Shown here piece by piece: positions 8,959 through 17,719 of a DNA stretch of 64,000 nt. Under the pieces are notes generated by a model. It was not told the DNA's origin, ran no database searches, and worked only from the letters and a program-made list of their open reading frames with translations. The translations under genes were made by a program, and so were the position numbers. Positions within the stretch are counted from its first letter, which is position 1. Each line of letters opens with the position of its first letter. Origin of the DNA: a virus; the IMG/VR virus record IMGVR_UViG_3300013132_002633, positions 12,497-76,496 of that record. One strand, 5' to 3'.

Positions 8959-9252
8959 ATGGCAAAAAAATCTACAGTTTCAAAAGAATCTACACAACGA
9001 GATGAATTAATTGAGTTGTTGGCAAGTGAGCTTAATAAAGCAAATAAAGAAGGTGGCAAGATTGCATACTTTTTAGATGAACAAGAAAATCCAGCAGAAA
9101 TTAGTGATTGGATTAGCACAGGATCATCTATATTGGATTTAGCAATCAGTAACCGTCCGCACGGTGGTCTTCCAGTTGGCAAGATGGTTGAATTCAACGG
9201 ATTGGAAGGATGCGTAACCGAAGACACTATAATAAAAGTTATTATTGAATAA
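8959..9252 (+). CDS. recA: RecA/UvsX piece 1: 84-aa N-extein plus 13-aa N-intein
   Basis: WISTGSSILDLAIS...GGLPVGKMVEFNGLEG, then CVTEDTIIKVIIE*; likely start ATG 8959 because the track start lies inside the terminator. Confidence 0.9.
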   Translation: MAKKSTVSKESTQRDELIELLASELNKANKEGGKIAYFLDEQENPAEISDWISTGSSILDLAISNRPHGGLPVGKMVEFNGLEGCVTEDTIIKVIIE

Positions 9253-9707
9253 AAATCTCCAATCCAACTATTAAAAGAAAAAAATCTGATGATAGATTTA
9301 GAAAATTTGGAAAAATTAAAAAGAAATTTATGAATAGAATAGTAAAAGAAATAAAAGTTGGTGATGTTTTATCTCTCTTAGCAGAAGGTAAAAATATTAA
9401 AGTATTGACTCGTAACAACGAGTATGTAAACATTACAAATTATGTAGATAAAGGATTATTAGATACATTTAAAGTTACATTAGATAATGGATTTACAATA
9501 AAGGTCTCTAGAGAACATAAATTTTTTACAAATGTTGGTTGGGTAGAACAGAGAAATTTAATTAAAGAAAATCACAAAATCTTTTGTGAAGATGGTGAAT
9601 ATCGTACAATACAAGATATAGAATATATTGGAAAACACAAAATTGTAGATATCACCGTTGATTCAGATGATCATTCGTATTTTGGAAATGGTATGCTTAA
9701 TCATAAT
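9211..9707 (+). mobile_element. Atypically split intein RecA-1 (IntN 9211-9249, 13 aa; IntC 9330-9707, 126 aa) in Walker A
   Basis: Cys1 block A; IntC holds block B VSREHKFF, block F IVDITV..HSYFGNG and terminal HN followed by +1 Thr; splicing restores GLEG|TGKS. Confidence 0.88.
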
Positions 9708-10193
9708 ACAGGAAAATCATTGGTATCTGCACATGTTGTTGCTGATACTCAAAGAAAAGGTGGAGTTGCAGTTGTCATTGATACTGAAAACGCAGCTGCT
9801 CCTGAGTTCTGGAAAAGTTTGGGTGTAGATCTATCTAAGTTACTGTATGTTCAATGTGAAACCGTTGAAGATATTTTTGCTCAGATGGAAAAGATGATCG
9901 CAATTGTTCGTAAGAGCAACAAAGATCGCATTCTTACAATCATTGTTGATTCTGTAGCAGCAGCATCAACTAAGGCAGAACTAGAAAGTGATCATGGTAA
10001 AGATGGTTATGCAACTGGTAAGAGTATTATTATCAGCAAGGCGATGCGTAAGATTACTACCATGATTGGTCGTCAAAAGGTTCTTACTGTGTTTACCAAT
10101 CAACTTCGTCAAAATATAAATGCTATGGCATTTGGTGATAAATATTGTGTTGATCCGTATACAACAAAAATAAAAATTAGATATAAAATTTAA
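9330..10193 (+). CDS. recA: RecA/UvsX piece 2: IntC-1, 146-aa middle extein, 15-aa IntN-2
   Basis: TGKS, IDTENA, Walker B IIVDSVAA, FTNQLR, then CVDPYTTKIKIRYKI*. Confidence 0.92.
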   Translation: MNRIVKEIKVGDVLSLLAEGKNIKVLTRNNEYVNITNYVDKGLLDTFKVTLDNGFTIKVSREHKFFTNVGWVEQRNLIKENHKIFCEDGEYRTIQDIEYIGKHKIVDITVDSDDHSYFGNGMLNHNTGKSLVSAHVVADTQRKGGVAVVIDTENAAAPEFWKSLGVDLSKLLYVQCETVEDIFAQMEKMIAIVRKSNKDRILTIIVDSVAAASTKAELESDHGKDGYATGKSIIISKAMRKITTMIGRQKVLTVFTNQLRQNINAMAFGDKYCVDPYTTKIKIRYKI

Positions 10194-10201
10194 TTTTTCC
10201 T

Positions 10202-10245
10202 CCTCCTACTATACACTTATACTTAAATAAGTCCTTAGTAGGAGG
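10202..10245 (+). promoter_or_regulatory. Hairpin sequestering the Shine-Dalgarno of the endonuclease gene
   Basis: CCTCCTACTA (10202-11) pairs with TAGTAGGAGG (10236-45); inner stem ACTTAT/ATAAGT; ATG at 10250. Confidence 0.8.
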
Positions 10246-10249
10246 TAAT

Positions 10250-11287
10250 ATGATTTTACTAGAATATTTAGATATAAATTTAACGTGGAAGAAAAATAAA
10301 CCAATTTTTAAATTTATAATTAAAACGGAAAAAAGAAAAACTAAAGAATTTCCTCTTAAATGTATTGTAAATAACAAAAGAATATCTAAAACAGGCAAAG
10401 AATATTATATACATTATTTGGGAGAAATTGGAGAAGAAGTATATAACGAGAGAAAAAAGTTATATAGCATGTACAGTCTTATACCATTTTATATTAAAAC
10501 GTATAATAAAGATGTTGAGAAATTGAACGAATATCTTAAAATATTGAAAAGTAATAATGTGAACGGCATTAAAAAATTTTATTTGTCCGAAAAGGGAGCT
10601 GAAGCTAGAAAAATACAATCGGAATGGGGAATTAAACATTCAATGGAAATCTCATCTAGAAATAGAAAATTATGGAAAGAAGATGAGTATGTTAACAAAG
10701 TCAAATCAAATCAAGATTATTCTTATGAAAATCATGGGAAGAAAATTTCCGATTTCTATAAAAATCAAAAAAATAAAGATTTCATAAAAAGTGTCATGAA
10801 CTCCCCGAAGAGAATCGAAAAAATATCGTTATCATCTAAAAAAATGTGGGAACATGCAAAATCATTTAATAAAGAGATGTATTATAGAATGATAAATTCG
10901 CAAAAACATAAAAATTTTGAATTAAATGGATATAAACTTAATAATATCGAATATTTGGTAGGTAGTATATTAAACAATTTTTCTATAAATTGGGAATACG
11001 AAAAAATTTTTCAGTTTAAAACAACTTGTTATTTGCCCGATTTTTATGTAAGATCTAAAAATCTAATCATAGAATGTTATGGTGATTATTGGCACGCCAA
11101 TCCTAAATATTTAAACGAAAACGATTTTACACATAAAAATAGATCTGTGAAAGATGTATGGGCATACGACTCTAGAAAAAAAGAAATTTTTGAAAACAAT
11201 GAATTTTCTTACTTATTTTTCTGGGAAAATGATATTCTAAATAACATAGATGGTATAAAAAAAACAATATATGAATACACAAGATAA
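10250..11287 (+). CDS. Free-standing Vsr/DUF559-like homing endonuclease
   Basis: C-terminal YLPDFY..LIIECYGDYWHANP...FWENDI; basic N-terminal region; lies between intein halves. Confidence 0.8.
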   Translation: MILLEYLDINLTWKKNKPIFKFIIKTEKRKTKEFPLKCIVNNKRISKTGKEYYIHYLGEIGEEVYNERKKLYSMYSLIPFYIKTYNKDVEKLNEYLKILKSNNVNGIKKFYLSEKGAEARKIQSEWGIKHSMEISSRNRKLWKEDEYVNKVKSNQDYSYENHGKKISDFYKNQKNKDFIKSVMNSPKRIEKISLSSKKMWEHAKSFNKEMYYRMINSQKHKNFELNGYKLNNIEYLVGSILNNFSINWEYEKIFQFKTTCYLPDFYVRSKNLIIECYGDYWHANPKYLNENDFTHKNRSVKDVWAYDSRKKEIFENNEFSYLFFWENDILNNIDGIKKTIYEYTR

Positions 11288-12113
11288 ATACATAGAAGAA
11301 GAATTAACAATTGCCGAGTTTGCGGAAAGATTTTTAGGAATGAATAATTATTCATCTGAAAACGTTGAAGAAATAGATATATCGGATATGGATATAGAAA
11401 TATATGGTCGAGATTTAAAGTCCTCACAGGATTGCTATAATAAAATTAATAAATTTATAATCAAAACTCCATCGGAATATCATTACAGTGATGGTATACT
11501 GAAAGGCACAGATTTACATCGAATTATTGAAGATGGAGTTGAAATTCACTTGAAAGATCACAACGATTTCAAAAGGGTTAATGAACCAATAAAAGTTGTA
11601 GATTTCGATATTGAAAATACACACAATTATTATGCCAATGGTCGATTAAATCATAATACCGTAAGCGGTGGCAAGGCTTTGGCTTATCACTGTAGTGTTC
11701 GTGTTCGTTTGAACAACACTGGTAAGTTGAAAAAGGCAGAAGAAGTTATTGGCAACGAGTGTAAAGCAGTTGTTATCAAAAACAGAATGGGTCCGCCACA
11801 ACGTCAAGCTAACTTTGAAATCTACTTTGACAGCGGTATTGCTGACTATAGTAGTTGGATCAAAGTATTGAAGGAGAATAACATTATCAAACAAGGTGGT
11901 GCGTATTACTCTTACAGAAAAGAAGACGGTAGTGAATGGAAGTTCCAATCCAAAGACTTTGTATCTACCATGCAATCTGACAAGGTTTTAAAAGAAGAAT
12001 TATATCTTAAGATCTGTGATGCGGTTGTTATGAAATACAAAGATCCTAACAGTCAAATCGTTGAGGATGCTACTGTTGATACTGATGAAGAAACTGCTGG
12101 AAACGACGAATAA
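11271..12113 (+). CDS. recA: RecA/UvsX piece 3: IntC-2 plus 151-aa C-extein
   Basis: GGKALAYHCSVRVRL, VIKNRMGPP, IYFDSGI, GAYYSY. Confidence 0.92.
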   Translation: MNTQDKYIEEELTIAEFAERFLGMNNYSSENVEEIDISDMDIEIYGRDLKSSQDCYNKINKFIIKTPSEYHYSDGILKGTDLHRIIEDGVEIHLKDHNDFKRVNEPIKVVDFDIENTHNYYANGRLNHNTVSGGKALAYHCSVRVRLNNTGKLKKAEEVIGNECKAVVIKNRMGPPQRQANFEIYFDSGIADYSSWIKVLKENNIIKQGGAYYSYRKEDGSEWKFQSKDFVSTMQSDKVLKEELYLKICDAVVMKYKDPNSQIVEDATVDTDEETAGNDE

Positions 12114-13186
12114 TGAATGAGTTAACACCAATCGAACGAAAGAAATTGTTCTCAATGTTCGAGAATATAGAAAGAGATTCCGTCATAACAGGACTTAAAA
12201 AATCGCTAAATAGTGATGTTCTGTTGGTTGACGGATTGTAGTTAAATACCTATATTCGTAGTTTCATGGCGATACCATCTTTAAATGACGATGGACTTCA
12301 CACGGGTGGTATCGCCGGTTTTCTTAAAAGTGTAGGATACGCAATAAAATTATTGAGTCCTACCAGAGTTATAATTGTATTTGACGGAAAAGGTGGGTCT
12401 CAAAAAAGAAGAAAGATTTATCCAGACTACAAAAATGGACGTAGAACTGATATTAAATTAAACAGATCATATGATGATCTATCAAATTCGGTTATTGAAA
12501 AAGCCAATTTCAAAAAAGAATTGATACGTACTGTAAATTACCTCGACGTGTTGCCTGTTACTGTAATGGCTATTGATAATATCGAAGCAGATGATACGAT
12601 TGCATATCTAGCTAAACAAACATTCAAAGACAGTAAGGTTACAATTATGTCTACGGACAAAGATTTTTTACAGTTAGCGAGTGATCAAATAAATATTTGG
12701 AGTCCTGTAAAGAAAAAAATATTTGGTTGTAAAGAAATTATTGATGAATATGGAATAACATGTAAAAACTTCATATTTTACAGAATAATGGAAGGAGACG
12801 TAAGCGATAATATTACAGGTTTGGATGGCGTGGGATTAAAACGTGTTACACAAGCATTTCCTTTTTTGGGTGAAGATCCACAGGCGTGTTTACAACAAAT
12901 ATATAATTATAGTGAAAATAATCGTAGCAGATATAAGATTTACGAGCGAGTATTAGACAATAAATTATTATTGGAACGTAATTATGAACTCATGCAATTA
13001 CATAATACACAAATTCAATCCTTTACTCAATTGAGAATTGAAGAGATTATAAATAAACCAGTTCCAAAAATTGATAAAATGAGTTTTAGTAAACTGATTA
13101 CAGAAGATAAAATGTGGTCAAATATACCTAATTACATGTACTGGTTAAATGAGTGTTTTGGAAAATTAAATTCATTTGTTGAATAA
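12113..13186 (+). CDS. 5'-3' exonuclease/RNase H (FEN/PolI-N family) with an in-frame TAG at 12239-12241 (recoded or pseudogene)
   Basis: ATG 12113 overlaps the recA stop and is in frame with the 12266 ORF: VLLVDGL*LNTYIRSF; downstream VFDGKGGS, EADD, STDKDFLQ and GDVSDNITG are intact. Confidence 0.85.
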
Positions 13187-13297: not shown

Positions 13298-14116
13298 ATG
13301 ACTGAAAAAATTATAATAGATTCACTTCGTAAGTATGGATTGGACTTTCAAATAAAGTGCATAACGTGTCTGTTATCAGATCGTAGCTTTATGGAGAGAA
13401 TTCAAGATATTGTTGAGGCTGAATTTTTTGAAAGTGATGCACAAAAATGGATTCTTAAAGAAAGTGTAAAATATTTTAATGAATATAAAGATCTTCCAAC
13501 ACTAACTGTATTCAAGGTTAAAGTAGATACTGTTGAAAACGAGGTTCTTAAAAAATCTATTATAGATAGCCTAAAATTGGTTTATCAAAAGTTAAATGAT
13601 AACGATTTGAAATTTGTTAAAGAACAATTTTTGGAATTTTGTAAGAACCAAAAATTAAAGAATGCTATATTTGAAAGTGCTGATTTATTGGAAACAGGTC
13701 AATATGACAAAATAAAGATGGTGGTTGATACCGCCATGAAAGCTGGTATGGAAAGAAATATTGGTCATGAATACGATGTAGAAATCGAAAAGCGTATGAG
13801 TATCATGGCTCGTAACACAATAAAAACCAACTGGACTGAAATCGATACTATCATGGACGGTGGTCTTGGGCCAGGTGAACTTGGAATTGTTGTTGCGCCA
13901 GCAGGAATTGGCAAATGTATTGGTCCAAATACCGAAATTGAGATCGAATATCACGAATTTGGTATTGAAACATTATCAAGTTGCGGAAAATCATTTATAA
14001 TGTGGATTAATCCGTTTGAAAAATATAAAATAGACGATGTTGAATTACTAGGTTGGCAAGTTGAAAATGTTTTTTATGAAATTGAAAAAATAAAACAAGA
14101 AAAAACTAAAAATTAA
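13298..14116 (+). CDS. dnaB: DnaB/gp41 helicase piece 1: 206-aa N-extein plus 66-aa N-intein segment
   Basis: DGGLGPGELGIVVAPAGIGK, then CIGPNTEIEIEY... Confidence 0.9.
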   Translation: MTEKIIIDSLRKYGLDFQIKCITCLLSDRSFMERIQDIVEAEFFESDAQKWILKESVKYFNEYKDLPTLTVFKVKVDTVENEVLKKSIIDSLKLVYQKLNDNDLKFVKEQFLEFCKNQKLKNAIFESADLLETGQYDKIKMVVDTAMKAGMERNIGHEYDVEIEKRMSIMARNTIKTNWTEIDTIMDGGLGPGELGIVVAPAGIGKCIGPNTEIEIEYHEFGIETLSSCGKSFIMWINPFEKYKIDDVELLGWQVENVFYEIEKIKQEKTKN

Positions 14117-14118
14117 CG

Positions 14119-14146
14119 TTGACCGGCATCGGTAAGTATTTATAAT
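14119..14146 (+). promoter_or_regulatory. Internal sigma70-type promoter ahead of the endonuclease and helicase piece 2
   Basis: TTGACC-16-TATAAT, overlapping TATTTATA 14137-44. Confidence 0.55.
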
Positions 14147-14185
14147 AAATTTCATTTTTATGACATATGAGATCTATTTATTGAC

Positions 14186-14911
14186 ATGAGTATTAAAAAA
14201 GAATTTTCAATATATCGATACCAATACTGGATGCAGAAATATGGTTTGACCGAAACCGACGCTAAAAATAAAGTCACATCAATTCAAAGAGAAAATGCGT
14301 TAAAATCATCAAAGAAGTTCACGCCAGATCGATCTTATTTAAAAAAAGAATATTGGATTAAAAAGAAAGGATATACTGAGTCAGATGCTGTCAAAAAAAT
14401 ATCTGAGATTCAATCGGAGTATTCAAAAAAATCCAGTAGATTCACAGGCAAAATTAGAACAATTGAGAGCAAAATTAAAATTTCAAACTCATTAAAATCT
14501 AAAATTGCCAAGATAGGCGGTGGCAATTGGGCAAAGCATTTTGGTCAATTTAATGGCAACTCTAAAATTGAAAAAGAATTTTATTTTTATATAAAAAATA
14601 ATATAAACACAAACGTTCAGGCAAATGTTCCTATATCAAATTATATAGTTGATGTTTTACATGAAACAAAAATAGTAGAATTTTATGGCGATTTTTGGCA
14701 CGCAAATCCTAAATTTTATGAATGTGATGACCTTATAAAATCGTTTAGTATCAATAAAACTGCAAATGAAATATGGATCAGTGATAATCGTAGAATTGAC
14801 ATATTACAAAAAATGGGGTATGATGTATTGATAATCTGGGAAAATGATTGGAAAAAAAACAAACAAGAGTGTATAGAAAAAATAAAAAAACATTATGAAA
14901 TTATTAATTAA
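14186..14911 (+). CDS. Free-standing Vsr/DUF559-like homing endonuclease
   Basis: IVEFYGDFWHANP...GYDVLIIWENDW; two N-terminal repeats YW..K.G.TE.DA..K...IQ. Confidence 0.82.
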   Translation: MSIKKEFSIYRYQYWMQKYGLTETDAKNKVTSIQRENALKSSKKFTPDRSYLKKEYWIKKKGYTESDAVKKISEIQSEYSKKSSRFTGKIRTIESKIKISNSLKSKIAKIGGGNWAKHFGQFNGNSKIEKEFYFYIKNNINTNVQANVPISNYIVDVLHETKIVEFYGDFWHANPKFYECDDLIKSFSINKTANEIWISDNRRIDILQKMGYDVLIIWENDWKKNKQECIEKIKKHYEIIN

Positions 14912-16007
14912 AAATGTCCGTGAAAATATTAAAATAAAAGATTTATTTGATAGATTAAAAATTAAAGATGAAGAAAATGCGATGGAACAGTTAAAATTTC
15001 CATTAAAAGTAAATACACCATTTGGTTATAAAAAAATTGTGACAGCGTTTCGTACTGAAAAACAAAAAACAATAACTTCTTATTTTGGTAACAATAAAAC
15101 ATTAAAGACTTCTGGAAAACATAGATTAAAAGTAAACGGGAGTTGGAAATTCGTAGATGAAATAAACTCTGGAGAGCTAGTAGAAACTGAAGTTGGTACC
15201 ACAAAATTAGTATCAAAAAAAGAAGGTCGAGACGAGATATTATATGATATATCGGTTGATGAAGTGCATTGTTATTATAGCAATGGCATTCTTTCCCATA
15301 ATTCATGGGTACTTGCCAAGTTGGGAGCTGAAGCAATGAAACAAGGTAAAAATGTTCTTCACTTCACACTAGAATTAAATGAAAACTATGTTGGATTACG
15401 ATATGATAGTTGTTTTACTGGAATTGATTTCCAAAATATCAGAAACAACATTGACATTGTAAAACAAAAGATTTCAGAAGTGCCTGGTAAACTTGTTATC
15501 AAGTATTTTCCATTGAAGACGGTATCAGCTCATAGCTTAAAATCTCATACTGAAAGATTGGCTGTATTGGGTACAAAAATTGACATGATCGTTGTAGATT
15601 ATGCAGATATTCTTCGTCCAGTACACAGTGATCGTAATAGCAACAGTTATAGTGAGGCTGGTGGTATTTACGAAGAGCTAAGAAGTATCGCGGGTGAACT
15701 TCAAATTCCAATTTGGAGTGCAAGTCAAGCGAATAGGTGTCATTTGGTTGATGATCAAGTACTTACAAATCGAGGAACGATTAGACTAGGAGATTTGACT
15801 ATTAACGATTTGGTTTTGACTCACAAAGGACTTAAAAAAGTAACAAAAATTTTTCCAACCGAAACGCAGCCTGTTTATAAAATTAAATTAAGATCTGGTA
15901 AAGAGATTAATATATCTGCAAATCATAGAGTTCCAACCGCCGACGGCAGATTAAAATCATTAGAAACTGGGTTGTCTGTAGGCGACAAGTTATTTACAAA
16001 AAAATAA
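14895..16007 (+). CDS. dnaB: DnaB helicase piece 2: IntC-1, 145-aa middle extein, 89-aa IntN-2
   Basis: HFTLEL, Walker B IVVDYADIL, IPIWSASQANR, then CHLVDDQV...ISANHRVPT. Confidence 0.92.
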   Translation: MKLLIKNVRENIKIKDLFDRLKIKDEENAMEQLKFPLKVNTPFGYKKIVTAFRTEKQKTITSYFGNNKTLKTSGKHRLKVNGSWKFVDEINSGELVETEVGTTKLVSKKEGRDEILYDISVDEVHCYYSNGILSHNSWVLAKLGAEAMKQGKNVLHFTLELNENYVGLRYDSCFTGIDFQNIRNNIDIVKQKISEVPGKLVIKYFPLKTVSAHSLKSHTERLAVLGTKIDMIVVDYADILRPVHSDRNSNSYSEAGGIYEELRSIAGELQIPIWSASQANRCHLVDDQVLTNRGTIRLGDLTINDLVLTHKGLKKVTKIFPTETQPVYKIKLRSGKEINISANHRVPTADGRLKSLETGLSVGDKLFTKK

Positions 16008-17389
16008 TATTTTGTGATGCAGACCATATATTTAATATTATATGATTAACACTAAATTTAGAGATATTGTTCATTTAATGAACCAGAAGCCGTTCCGTGA
16101 TTTTAAAAATGATTTAAGCGAATGCGTAATCAGTAACTTAAAAAAGGTCATATTAGAGTTTGATAAAAAATATATCTTGAATAACAAGAAAGAAGTCATA
16201 CAGAACATGATTAGATATAATGTTGATGGTGATTGGGTAGAGAGATTAAAAAATGGTGATAAATATAAAAAAGACGGATTTTCCATGGAAGCATTGATTG
16301 TGAAATATGGCGAATCTGTTGCAAAGTTAATATCAGATGAAAGAAACGATAAAGTTGCGATTACCAAGGATAAATATATACGAAACCATAGTGAACATGA
16401 ATGGGAAGAATTATGTAAAAAAAAGAGAAGTAATTTAGGACTTGATGGTTATATTAAAAAATATGGACATGAAGAAGGTTTAAAAAAATGGAACAATTAC
16501 TTAAAAAAATGGAAAATTGGCATTGAAAAGAAAAAAGCTGATGGTTGGAAAAATGGTTTAACGATTGAGGAATATCAAACTAGATATGGAATAAAAGAAG
16601 GATATGAACGTTGGAGAAAAAGAATAAATAGTAGAAAATATACTCTTTCTTTAGAAGGATATATTAATAAACACGGTGGTGAGTTGGGAAAAAAGTTGTG
16701 GGGTGAATATTGTAAATCAAATAATAAAACGTCGTTGGAGTCTTTTATCAAAAGATACGGTGAGAAGTTTGGAAAAGAAAAGTACGTTTTGATGCTAGAA
16801 AAGATCTTTTGTTATTTAAAAAACCGAAGGTGTTATAGCATAATTTCCCAAGAATTATTTAAAAATGTAGCAGATAAATTGGAAAATAAAAATGATATAA
16901 AATATGCAATACAAAATGGAGAGCAATATTTTTTTATTAATGAAAATTTTTGTAAAGGTATGTTTGTCGATTTTAAATATGGAAACATAATTATAGAATT
17001 TTATGGAGATTTTTGGCATGCTAATCCATCTAAATACAAAGAAAACGATATAGTAAAACTTCCTAATAACAATAAATTGGCTAATAAAGTTTGGAGTGAA
17101 GATAAAGAAAAAATTGATTGGTTGGTAAAACGAGGATACAATGTAATGATTGTATGGGAAAGTGATTATTTGAAAAATAAAAATGAAGTGGTACAGAGTT
17201 GTTTAAATTTCATAAAACAGAACTATAAATAATATGACAGAAAAAATTACAAAAGAACACGATTTAAATCCTAATGAGTTTGAGTTAGATGAAATAGTCA
17301 ACATAGAGTGTATAGGTGATCATGAAACGGTTGACATTACTGTGGATGACACGCATATGTTTTTTGCAAATGGTGTATATACACACAAT
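15738..17389 (+). mobile_element. Conventionally split intein DnaB-2 (IntN 15738-16004, 89 aa; IntC 17234-17389, 52 aa), gp41-8-like, with an intervening endonuclease gene
   Basis: Block B SANH lies in IntN; IntC ETVDITVDDTHMFFANGVYTHN followed by Ser; junction SQANR|SAADE resembles the gp41-8 site as I recall it. Confidence 0.9.
16042..17232 (+). CDS. Free-standing Vsr/DUF559-like homing endonuclease with tandem helical repeats
   Basis: IIEFYGDFWHANP...GYNVMIVWESDY; 4-6 repeats of L-E-x-Y-I-x-K-Y-G-x-x-x-G-x-x-x-W. Confidence 0.82.
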   Translation: MINTKFRDIVHLMNQKPFRDFKNDLSECVISNLKKVILEFDKKYILNNKKEVIQNMIRYNVDGDWVERLKNGDKYKKDGFSMEALIVKYGESVAKLISDERNDKVAITKDKYIRNHSEHEWEELCKKKRSNLGLDGYIKKYGHEEGLKKWNNYLKKWKIGIEKKKADGWKNGLTIEEYQTRYGIKEGYERWRKRINSRKYTLSLEGYINKHGGELGKKLWGEYCKSNNKTSLESFIKRYGEKFGKEKYVLMLEKIFCYLKNRRCYSIISQELFKNVADKLENKNDIKYAIQNGEQYFFINENFCKGMFVDFKYGNIIIEFYGDFWHANPSKYKENDIVKLPNNNKLANKVWSEDKEKIDWLVKRGYNVMIVWESDYLKNKNEVVQSCLNFIKQNYK

Positions 17390-17719
17390 TCAGCAGCAGA
17401 CGAAGACATTGTTATGGCACATCACGCTGCCGACAGTTATCGTAAAATCATGACTGCCGATTTCGTAATGAGTGTGTCTCGCAAGACAAACGATAAAGTA
17501 AGTAATACAGCACGATTCCACATTATTAAAAATCGTTTCGGACCAGATGGTTTGACATTCCCAAGCAAAATGAATGCTGGCTGTGGTCAGATTGAGATTT
17601 ATGGTGAAAACAGTCGTGAAGGTCTGGCTGTGTTGAATGAAATGATGGACGGTGAGAACAATGTGAAAAAAGTCTTAAAAAATAAATGGAACGCACATAA
17701 TGCTAATGACGATGAATAA
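17234..17719 (+). CDS. dnaB: DnaB helicase piece 3: IntC-2 plus 109-aa C-extein
   Basis: ADSYRKIMTADFVM and the arginine-finger motif IIKNRFGPDG. Confidence 0.92.
   Translation: MTEKITKEHDLNPNEFELDEIVNIECIGDHETVDITVDDTHMFFANGVYTHNSAADEDIVMAHHAADSYRKIMTADFVMSVSRKTNDKVSNTARFHIIKNRFGPDGLTFPSKMNAGCGQIEIYGENSREGLAVLNEMMDGENNVKKVLKNKWNAHNANDDE

Follow-up and report, generated by a model that had tools for sequence, protein, structure and literature searches.

A short stop-initiated coding gap in a phage 5′-3′ exonuclease gene, at the edge of a homing-endonuclease cassette, as a candidate site of ribosomal hopping

The mobA/gene 60 cassette of bacteriophage T4 is the precedent for a coding gap linked to a homing endonuclease (10.1101/2022.08.31.505936). 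As of 2022, this cassette was still described as unique. Hops over a stop codon flanked by matched codons are established in synthetic constructs, with no natural occurrences known (PMC5009743). Those obtained in Escherichia coli include, by the title of one original paper, +5 and +6 events (Weiss, Dunn, Atkins and Gesteland 1987; O'Connor 1989; PMC5009743), and have been described as low-level events in artificial constructs. Mitochondria of Magnusiomyces capitatus contain “byps” of 27–55 nt at 81 sites, associated with relaxed decoding (Lang 2014; Nosek 2015; PMC5009743).

Here we describe a gap of 5–7 nt, beginning with a stop codon, in a seemingly essential 5′-3′ exonuclease gene for DNA repair in phages, as found in a 64,000 nt stretch of DNA from a lake phage (hereafter the window; positions 12,497 to 76,496 of IMG/VR virus record IMGVR_UViG_3300013132_002633) and in its relatives. 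We put at roughly 65% the probability that a programmed +6 ribosomal hop (+5 or +7 in some relatives) rescues a gene in which an endonuclease target was broken by the insert. The site would act as a bypass site, yet it is not a homologue of the gene 60-type cassette. As in T4 (Huang 1988; Bonocora 2011; 10.1101/2022.08.31.505936), the gene concerned serves phage DNA metabolism, a stop comes immediately behind the take-off codon, the matched landing codon adjoins the resume codon, and the gap, some 40 codons into the ORF, forms the 3′ edge of a mobile element with a free-standing homing endonuclease; as with mobA, decay or loss of the endonuclease often leaves the gap behind, and the gap would likewise protect against the endonuclease. 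Unlike in T4, the gap measures 5–7 nt instead of 50 nt, take-off would occur at a Leu codon instead of the Gly codon GGA, neither a take-off stem-loop nor a conserved nascent-peptide signal can be seen, the endonuclease belongs to the Vsr-like type with NUMOD3 whereas MobA is an HNH enzyme, the 5′ part of the host gene has been replaced whereas the T4 gene is split into two, and the predicted product is a FEN-type exonuclease instead of a topoisomerase.

With the synthetic stop-hops, the arrangement shares matched codons on both sides of the stop, nine nucleotides corresponding to one amino acid, and a slow stop codon in the A site as trigger, but it is natural, conserved over deep divergence and apparently needed for an active enzyme. 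Like the byps, the inserts are short, mobile and coding, and would be tolerated through translational bypass; in contrast to byps, they occupy one specific site, span 5–7 nt, are met by bacterial ribosomes and are linked to a homing endonuclease. The endonucleases themselves resemble those associated with “fractured genes” (Dassa et al. 2009, PMC2677866), which also combine NUMOD3 with a Vsr-like catalytic domain and also occur in the setting of environmental phage replication and repair genes; here, however, the endonuclease gene is intergenic, and its neighbour is whole but for the 5–7 nt gap, with no intein or intron. The sequence of a Leu codon followed by a stop further recalls the +1 frameshift site CUU UGA C of prfB (RF2), and one related locus (L118) reads CTT TGA CTA, but there is no upstream Shine-Dalgarno stimulator and the displacement needed is +5, +6 or +7. 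A prfB-like +1 frameshift was rejected, as it would encounter an immediate stop (GAC TAA in L118).

In the window, the reading frame 12113–13186 on the + strand starts at ATG 12113 and proceeds through GAC GGA TTG TAG TTA AAT, with one in-frame stop; GGA at 12233, TTG at 12236–12238, TAG at 12239–12241, TTA at 12242–12244 and AAT at 12245 belong to one continuous frame. The N-terminal part (ORF1, 12113–12238, +) comprises 42 codons, Met1 to Leu42, and ends in the take-off codon TTG; its product would consist of an N-terminal helix followed by strand β1 (VLLVD) with the catalytic Asp40. The 6 nt coding gap (12239–12244, +) is made up of the stop TAG and the landing codon TTA. The C-terminal part (ORF2, 12245–13186, +) begins with the resume codon AAT (Asn43) and extends for 313–314 codons to TAA 13184–13186, the first start codon within it being ATG 12266. 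Upstream, the C-terminal piece of recA/UvsX (11271–12113, +) ends in TAA 12111–12113, overlapping the exonuclease ATG 12113–12115 (TAATG). The DGL-stop-LNTY frame and its coupling to the recA stop, both pointed out in an earlier note on this DNA, are thus confirmed. ORFs in the standard code (table 11) densely fill the rest of the window, and TAG accordingly does not stand for an amino acid in this DNA; the TAG of the gap is the only in-frame stop in the window's genes, and TAG reassignment or an alternative code was ruled out on these grounds. Three further stops flanked by matched codons in the window were considered as hop sites and rejected as ordinary gene boundaries or antisense frames.

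The gene evidently encodes a FEN/Pol I-type 5′-3′ exonuclease, as judged from profile matches and motifs. The 5′-3′ exonuclease N-domain PF02739 spans the stop (residues 36–214, profile positions 2–164 of 164, E 9.5e-29, 100.7 bits against a cut-off of 34.3), the match to the C-terminal H3TH/SAM-fold domain PF01367 is weak (E 9.6e-4, 20 bits, below the cut-off of 40), and phmmer matches were obtained to the Pol I 5′-nuclease structures 6vde and 1bgx and to T5 exonuclease (1exn). The GD.SDNIPG motif is present, and is invariant in a comparison of 25 uninterrupted relatives. In its uninterrupted form the protein aligns to 6vde and 1bgx across VDGLNTYIRSF with no gap. The hhhDG motif with its metal-ligand Asp, together with the N...R of helix 1 at fixed spacing, is obtained only when the 6 nt are skipped, giving VLLVD40-G-L42 and then N43-TYI-R47, of which D40, N43 and R47 are invariant in the 25 uninterrupted relatives. 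An AF2 model of an uninterrupted homologue has a strand at residues 35–40 and a helix at 41–51, and would put the gap where helix 1 begins, after L42 and before the invariant N43, close to the catalytic D40. Readthrough would move this register by two residues. The earlier note had assigned the gene to this family and placed the motif Asp outside the ORF starting at 12266, and both points hold: ORF2 alone is without D40.

Inserts of 5, 6 or 7 nt are present at the same site in more than 100 metagenomic phage contigs, and the exonucleases of the most divergent insert-bearers share 38–48% identity with that of the window. One counted set of insert-bearers comprises 42 distinct site haplotypes, with further ones beyond that set. 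The boundaries of the insert are constant: in all 5, 6 and 7 nt variants the stop comes right after the take-off Leu codon, and the last base of the insert stands right before the Asn codon. The recurrence of a Leu-stop-NNN insert at one codon in many independent contigs takes this site far beyond chance. About 50 relatives (78–88% identity) are uninterrupted and read GAY GGN YTN AAY (DGLNTY); relative to them the window has exactly 6 extra nt, as had been supposed. The nearest cultured homologue checked, from Microcystis phage Mel-JY01 (41% identity), is uninterrupted as well, and Flavobacterium “immuto” phages (36.5%) have, by annotation, a single 5′-3′ exonuclease; a nucleotide search of GenBank phages returned no close cultured relatives. 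The pattern searches demanded NT(F/Y)I after the gap, and conservation of these four residues in divergent matches is therefore partly by construction. Patterns allowing up to 32–34 nt gave only 5, 6 and 7 nt gaps at the site, and matches with gaps of 13–35 nt were situated in unrelated DNA. Chance pattern matches were excluded (L111, L123, L124, L135, L138, L146, L147, L152, L155, L157, L160, L161, L253–L255, L257 and L259–L261).

Errors frequently account for in-frame stops of metagenomic contigs, and this prior is what speaks for an error of sequencing or assembly, or for a nonsense mutation arisen by chance, in the contig of the window. However, separate assemblies of other samples (L002–L004, L140 and L153) contain these same 6 nt, and dozens of further contigs have analogous gaps, which reduces the probability of such an origin to almost nothing. 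The insert is neither a sequencing error nor a recent nonsense mutation. Nor is it at all probable that an amino acid is inserted at the stop, through readthrough, suppression or reassignment, to give DGL-x-L-NTYIR. In favour of this, the 6 nt class keeps the downstream part in frame, and TAG terminates only 1 of the 58 long ORFs of the 76.5 kb contig. Yet TAA, TAG and TGA are all found at the start of the insert, and the stop differs between close kin (TAA in L245 and TGA in L246; TAG in L256 and TAA in L264). There is no suppressor or Leu tRNA gene in the window, nor any tRNA gene in the 76.5 kb contig, and no other in-frame TAG interrupts the window's genes. Readthrough would moreover introduce two residues between the invariant D40 and N43, and it is impossible for the out-of-frame gaps of 5 and 7 nt. 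A search of IMG/VR with a pattern leaving the middle codon free yielded stops in 17 of 17 matches and a sense codon in none; a homologue reading DGL-x-L-N with a sense codon, by which the earlier note would have recognised a simple nonsense mutation, was thus not encountered among these matches.

Further indications come from the codon that precedes Asn43. Take-off and landing positions are occupied by Leu codons from one and the same box in 13 of the 16 six-nucleotide types, and the landing codons of the remaining three (GTA, ATA and CGA) are each one base off CTA; the locus with ATA (L150) has a close relative (L248) with CTA. The triples covary (TTG-TAG-TTA, CTC-TAA-CTT, CTT-TGA-CTA and others), with a double change inside one cassette family (TTG..TTA versus CTC..CTT), and Leu-stop-Leu is conserved among homologues in the manner that the earlier note had anticipated for recoding. 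Gaps of 5 nt read TAGTG, invariant across all four sub-lineages, while those of 7 nt, such as TGA CAAC and TAGCGTC, change the frame and contain no start codon. In both of these classes the landing triplet matches the take-off codon at only one or two of three positions (GTG for TTG or CTG, GTC for CTC, AAC for CTC, AAA for CTA), which suggests that re-pairing is perhaps not the whole story. Resumption would be at Asn43 for all three lengths; a single product could arise from all of them only via bypass.

It is conceivable that the ribosome skips only the stop (plus 0–1 nt, or minus 1) and decodes the next triplet, in which case the product would be DGL-X-NTY, with Leu as the extra residue in the window and Val, Ile, Arg, Asn or Lys elsewhere. 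This would suit the mostly hydrophobic nature of the triplet before Asn43 (Leu, Val, Ile) and the poor 7 nt matches (AAC, AAA), for which re-pairing does not account. Three shift sizes (+2, +3 and +4) with no pairing rationale would nevertheless be required, helix 1 would have to accept Arg, Asn or Lys as its N-cap next to the invariant N43, and the same-box Leu covariation (TTG/TTA versus CTN/CTN) is precisely what re-pairing predicts. We regard this decoding register as distinctly unlikely. In the +6 hop that we favour, Leu42 would be decoded at UUG, whereupon the slow-to-decode UAG would occupy the A site; peptidyl-tRNA-Leu would unpair, the mRNA would slip by 6 nt, and the tRNA would re-pair with UUA, with decoding restarting at AAU (Asn43). 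The product would keep the normal ...VDGLNTYIR..., one Leu being specified by nine nucleotides. Related phages would reach the same junction through +5 (TAG TG) and +7 (e.g. TGA CAAC) hops.

Homing endonucleases are known to make genes in pieces, and a 42-residue N-terminal peptide (β1, Asp40) might assemble non-covalently with a separately initiated C-terminal protein. The 5 nt class lends itself to this, since its invariant TAGTG includes a GTG start overlapping the stop, at which the C-terminal part could restart and from which an ORF finder calls a 314-codon ORF, so that this class could represent a two-polypeptide gene. The 6 nt gap of the window and all 7 nt gaps, on the other hand, offer no start codon in or close to the junction: translation could next begin at an ATG, GTG or TTG situated 8–42 codons downstream, yet the intervening codons vary only synonymously, and the seven codons for NTYIRSF that separate the gap from the first ATG show synonymous differences only among insert-bearers. 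Such a break would also, according to the structural model, separate the central strand β1 from helix 1. Two assembling polypeptides are on balance quite improbable.

Clues to what might promote a hop were sought in the surrounding RNA and peptide. Folding of 90 nt windows for 16 hop-bearing and 5 uninterrupted lineages revealed no shared stimulatory hairpin, with z-scores mostly between −1.4 and +0.9, in line with the earlier impression that no strong one exists; no conserved Shine-Dalgarno-like element was found around the gap site, and the peptide upstream of the gap represents the enzyme motif that uninterrupted genes also encode. With no conserved RNA structure or Shine-Dalgarno-like element, an efficient hop is left without explanation. 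We consider it slightly better than an even chance that bacterial ribosomes hop stop-initiated gaps of 5–7 nt productively without elaborate RNA or nascent-peptide signals, and that a widespread family of Vsr-like homing-endonuclease cassettes of aquatic phages exploits this by disrupting its own target, within the catalytic motif of the phage flap endonuclease, with a gap to which the ribosome pays no heed.

The insert most evidently constitutes the 3′ edge of a mobile cassette consisting of a Vsr-like homing-endonuclease gene, a replacement N-terminal part and the gap, and this linkage of the gap to a cassette is new here. In its full form, the cassette features a free-standing Vsr-like endonuclease gene between recA and the exonuclease gene, a diverged replacement copy of the first ~42 codons of the latter, and the 5–7 nt insert after the Leu42 codon, within the highly conserved sequence coding for VDGLNT(F/Y)IR. 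Vsr-like homologues lie directly upstream of the exonuclease gene in 14 of 42 insert haplotypes and in 0 of 94 uninterrupted ones (Fisher 1e-8; independent contrasts 6:0, p ~0.03), and they turned up at insert-bearing loci only; the same applies to four 7 nt lineages. Two pairs of loci (L043/L035 and L051/L040) are essentially identical over more than 1.4 kb on both sides, with at most 1–2 mismatches per 50 nt and mostly none, and differ solely by a block comprising the endonuclease gene, the N-terminal part and the gap, the right edge of which is 0–3 nt from the gap. Similarly, L002 and its uninterrupted sister L001 are ~95% identical except in a block from −80 to 0 (63%) that ends at the insert. 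The predicted endonucleases share an invariant E..G.YWH..P...D block; NUMOD3 scores above cut-off in L117, L150 and L158, and matches to REase_MTES_1575 fall below the Pfam cut-off. The scar of a mobile element, which the earlier note had offered as an alternative, was therefore partly right, as the insert marks the 3′ edge of such an element. The window itself carries a cassette remnant, i.e. the replacement tract and the gap with no adjoining endonuclease gene. The cassette-derived tract (approximately 12158–12244, +, the left edge being approximate) covers the last ~27 codons of ORF1 and the gap, and bears the signature ...DSV.TGLKKS.NSDVLLVDGL common to endonuclease-linked 5 nt cassettes.

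Both parts of the gene are intact wherever the contig extends far enough (32–44 codons with ATG for ORF1, 313–323 codons for ORF2), and ORF1 is open at all insert-bearing loci examined. Because exchange with resident alleles has made the N-terminal part mosaic, dN/dS over all its 42 codons is confounded, and the ratio was therefore redone on the 27-codon cassette core, giving 0.06–0.45 at dS 0.5–1.1, and on the sister hop-bearers L121 and L131, giving 0.16 for the C-terminal and 0.35 for the N-terminal part. L262 and L266 have the identical gap TGACAAC despite saturated dS in the flanks. It thus appears that the parts on either side of the gap are both under purifying selection, and that the gene is alive. 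Together with conservation among homologues and the absence of sense codons, this selection supports the recoding proposed in the earlier note.

The cassette could alternatively be a selfish element that inactivates a dispensable exonuclease, for which host Pol I or another nuclease would substitute, with ORF2 kept intact through recent invasion or through refreshing recombination with intact alleles. T4 rnh is non-essential. At least 15–20 changes of insert state are needed on the C-part tree, and some cassette invasions are indeed very recent, with near-identical flanks, so that intact ORFs in those loci are uninformative on function. However, deeply diverged hop-bearers (L121/L131, L119/L134 and L262/L266) keep both ORFs open, dN/dS of the cassette-borne N-terminal part is well under 1, the gap stays a stop plus a Leu-like codon while its bases change, with no change from stop to sense, and an identical 7 nt gap has been kept across saturated divergence. 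This is not as expected of dead DNA, and inactivation of the gene is in our opinion unlikely.

The sporadic, cassette-linked distribution suggests that a selfish insertion is rescued, and speaks against regulation such as the limiting of a toxic nuclease envisaged in the earlier note. The insert and the synonymous recoding upstream of it would destroy the target site of the endonuclease, and cassette-bearing genomes would thereby be immune, as is T4 to MobA through the 50 nt insert of gene 60. If ribosomes do hop here, this would be the first natural stop-hop, a phenomenon confined to synthetic constructs since 1987, and the second, independent mobile element combining an endonuclease with bypass after T4 mobA/gene 60. 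The natural series of 5, 6 and 7 nt gaps at one codon, with varied take-off and landing pairs and all three stops, represents a ready-made mutational series on what ribosomes need for stop bypass. Should the hop be real, homing endonucleases can immunise their host genome at little cost by insertion in an essential catalytic motif, and gene callers will systematically shorten such genes, as here to a 306-codon ORF from 12266 without the catalytic Asp. A caution also follows for stops elsewhere: where matched codons flank them, what looks like “readthrough” or a “pseudogene” may in some cases be a hop.

A Vsr-like (DUF559/phrog_22677) homing-endonuclease gene is located elsewhere in the window, at 10250–11287 (+), inside the split recA. 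Its product is distantly homologous (26%) to the endonucleases of related cassettes, in which the endonuclease gene immediately precedes the exonuclease gene and separates it from the recA piece. Its DUF559 match is above the cut-off, and phrog_559, 3339 and 22677 are also matched by endonucleases of the cassettes and the window. The recA and helicase genes of the window are fractured by split inteins.

The exonuclease gene of the window begins at ATG 12113, overlapping the stop of the C-terminal piece of recA (TAATG), and its first 42 codons end in GTT GAC GGA TTG. An in-frame TAG follows (12239-12241), then TTA AAT ACC, and the frame past the TAG is open for 314 codons to a TAA at 13184-13186. 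The earlier note's reading of this site was borne out on re-inspection, and the Pfam 5'-3' exonuclease N-domain (PF02739) gives a full-length match spanning the stop (E 9.5e-29). Standard-code ORFs densely fill the remainder of the 64-kb window, so TAG is not generally reassigned. The whole 76.5-kb contig (31% GC), of which the window is 12497-76496, contains no tRNA genes. Of its ORFs with 200 codons or more, 58 in all, 39 end in TAA, 18 in TGA and 1 in TAG, which makes the internal TAG of the exonuclease one of very few in-frame TAGs met by ribosomes. The gap is flanked by two fractured genes (8959-12113 and 13298-17719), in a hotspot of selfish elements: recA/UvsX of the window is in pieces (8959-12113), with intein matches, and between two of the pieces lies a DUF559/Vsr-like endonuclease ORF (10250-11287), a distant homologue of the cassette endonuclease described below.

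A protein-guided scan of IMG/VR yielded 80 loci of 78-88% identity, about 50 of which read GAY GGN YTN AAY (DGLNTY) without a gap, confirming that six nucleotides are extra in the window. TTG TAG TTA AAT occurs in the window and in loci L002-L004, CTC TAA CTT AAC in L057, and a frame-changing five-nucleotide insert, TTG TAG TG AAT, in 25 of the 80. Every insert-bearer of this set has an intact 42-codon first ORF with ATG and an intact 313-codon second ORF. Degenerate DNA patterns with the flanking motif alone fixed recovered equivalent inserts in distant exonucleases, 38-48% identical to that of the window and with unrelated N-termini. The six-nucleotide forms among these are CTT TAA CTG, CTT TGA CTA, CTG TGA CTG, CTT TAG CTC, CTT TAG CTG, CTG TGA CTC, CTT TAG CTA, CTC TGA CTT, CTC TGA CTC, CTT TAA CTC and CTT TGA CTC. 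Three six-nucleotide forms have a non-Leu second codon (CGA, GTA or ATA), each one base off CTA; ATA is found in L150, whose close relative L248 has CTA. Seven-nucleotide gaps came from the last scan (CTC TAG CGTC, CTC TAA CGTC, CTC TGA CAAC and CTA TAG AAAA), bringing the tally to 16 six-nucleotide, two five-nucleotide and four seven-nucleotide types; pattern matches with gaps of more than 7 nt fell in unrelated DNA and were rejected. The family does not keep Gly-Leu ahead of the gap without exception, since uninterrupted L182 reads VDSLNTFIR (GAC AGC CTT) and uninterrupted L195, L200, L209 and L210 read VDFMNTFLR (GAC TTY ATG).

If the stop were read through, or were a simple nonsense mutation, relatives should exist with a sense codon in its place. 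None did among the 17 loci recovered by a pattern leaving that codon free: all 17 carry a stop. Moreover, all three stops are used at the site, close kin interchange them (TAA/TGA in L245/L246, TAG/TAA in L256/L264), and gaps of five or seven nucleotides are impossible to read through. Separate initiation of the C-terminal part is argued against by the absence of a start codon from the window gap and from all seven-nucleotide gaps, and by several divergent lineages in which the next start lies dozens of codons downstream. The five-nucleotide class, however, is always TAGTG and holds an overlapping GTG at which it may restart; as the only class with such a start, it alone could represent a two-piece gene.

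In the uninterrupted protein VDGLNTYIRSF aligns without gaps to the solved Pol I 5'-nucleases 6vde and 1bgx, and D40, N43 and R47 are invariant among 25 diverse uninterrupted relatives. An AlphaFold model (pLDDT 88) places strand beta1 at residues 35-40 and helix 1 at 41-51, and the gap therefore sits between L42 and N43, at the helix start, beside the catalytic Asp. The family register is restored by skipping the gap and shifted by reading it; a register decoding one extra residue at the junction is a less likely alternative. Alignment of homologues, as the earlier note had proposed, shows Leu-stop-Leu to be kept, with take-off and landing codons from the same Leu box in 13 of 16 six-nucleotide types. 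No mixed TTR/CTN pairs occur among the six-nucleotide types; both boxes are found here in uninterrupted relatives, and TTG..TTA and CTC..CTT both occur inside one cassette family. In the five- and seven-nucleotide classes the triplet before Asn43 always shares the third base of the take-off codon, and the triplets GTG and GTC match it at two bases; the landing match in the seven-nucleotide class is poor.

Comparison of dN/dS on the two sides of the gap indicates purifying selection on both (0.35 for the N-part and 0.16 for the C-part between the sister insert-bearers L121 and L131). A cassette-specific 27-codon core has dN/dS of 0.06-0.45 at dS 0.5-1.1, and all differences among insert-bearers in the seven codons from the gap to the first ATG are synonymous. 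L262 and L266 have an identical seven-nucleotide gap, TGACAAC, with N-parts 53% identical (dS 1.25) and C-parts 62% identical (dS saturated). In a dead gene, divergence on this scale would have erased both the open frames and the shared gap sequence.

In several insert-bearing loci recA and the exonuclease are separated by an extra ORF of ~310 aa, which at its end overlaps the exonuclease start. It combines a NUMOD3 motif with a Vsr/DUF559-like nuclease domain and matches PHROG homing-endonuclease families; Vsr-like homing endonucleases of fractured genes have been described (Dassa et al. 2009, PMC2677866). Its homologues in tblastn searches are confined to insert-bearing loci. Of 42 distinct insert haplotypes, 14 have the endonuclease or a remnant of it immediately upstream of the exonuclease, versus 0 of 94 uninterrupted ones (Fisher 1e-8), and phylogenetically independent contrasts of endonuclease against insert give 6:0 (p ~0.03). 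The endonuclease is equally placed in four seven-nucleotide lineages and lies upstream in the deep six-nucleotide lineages L117 and L150, with a remnant in L118; pairwise identity among the cassette endonucleases is 26-61%. The insert state changes at least 15-20 times on the C-part tree, and identical C-part proteins exist with and without the insert.

Paired contigs give substance to the idea of a mobile element. Loci L043 and L035, like L051 and L040, are essentially identical to either side for over 1.4 kb (mostly without a mismatch per 50 nt, and never with more than 1-2) and differ by one block, comprising the endonuclease gene, replacement exonuclease codons 1-42 (65% identical) and TAGTG, with identity back within 0-3 nt of the gap. 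Pairs without the endonuclease have a shorter differing block (-256 to 0), and between L002 and its uninterrupted sister L001 the only such block is -80 to 0 plus TAGTTA. These comparisons make the gap the fixed 3' edge of a mobile homing-endonuclease cassette whose left edge varies, and the window holds a cassette remnant without an adjoining endonuclease gene. Sequence comparison shows a conserved and selected gap of 5-7 nt, starting with a stop, at a single codon of a gene on which purifying selection acts, and shows its linkage to the cassette; it is highly probable that this cassette-linked gap is under selection and that the gene is live.

Peptidyl-tRNA-Leu would hop from UUG over UAG to UUA, with decoding restarting at AAU. 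The hop product would be the normal protein, so that nine nucleotides would specify one Leu, and the insert with the recoded upstream codons would destroy the endonuclease recognition site. Experiments offer a precedent for the hop and for the target-site loss: stop-hops between matched codons are well established in synthetic constructs (Weiss et al. 1987, as cited in PMC5009743; 10.1101/2024.12.09.627546), and the 50-nt bypass of T4 gives protection from MobA, with which it also moves (Bonocora 2011, as cited in 10.1101/2022.08.31.505936). The exonuclease site would work like both, but it is not homologous to the T4 gene 60 cassette, from which it differs in gap length, signals, endonuclease family and host gene. 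No stimulatory RNA structure was found near the gap. A 2016 review gives natural in-frame stop-hops as not known (PMC5009743), the gene 60 cassette is described as unique in a 2022 preprint (10.1101/2022.08.31.505936), and no description of this exonuclease site was found in the literature. The stop-hop interpretation of the earlier note, to which the cassette context and the five- and seven-nucleotide classes are now added, has the support of every available comparative test, and we put the probability of a productive ribosomal hop in this gene at about 65%.

Four pairs from different lake metagenomes (L043/L035, L051/L040, L080/L079 and L030/L025), essentially identical over ~3 kb outside the cassette block, have gained or lost the endonuclease cassette very recently in natural populations and offer clean natural "before and after" alleles. 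Between recA and the exonuclease of L118 (1885-2220; also in L122), 330 ORF-free nucleotides include a 113-residue stretch with 47% identity to the L046 endonuclease, a decayed endonuclease beside a kept CTT TGA CTA gap. The ORF at this place in insert-bearing L134 (4779-5483; CTT TGA CGA) encodes no endonuclease but a Mom-like protein of DNA modification (PF25680, E 1.7e-40). Further weak Vsr-like endonuclease homologues downstream of the exonuclease and helicase region (~2.5 kb from the exonuclease start in L119/L120/L127/L151; also in L069/L082 and L263) suggest that replication genes nearby are targets of other cassettes of this family. In the five-nucleotide group (e.g. L081-L116) ~35 contigs with C-part dS up to ~1 share an identical 46-nt stretch just ahead of TAGTG. 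Their identity falls from 100% at the N-part to ~75% about 900 nt further downstream, a pattern resembling a co-conversion gradient.
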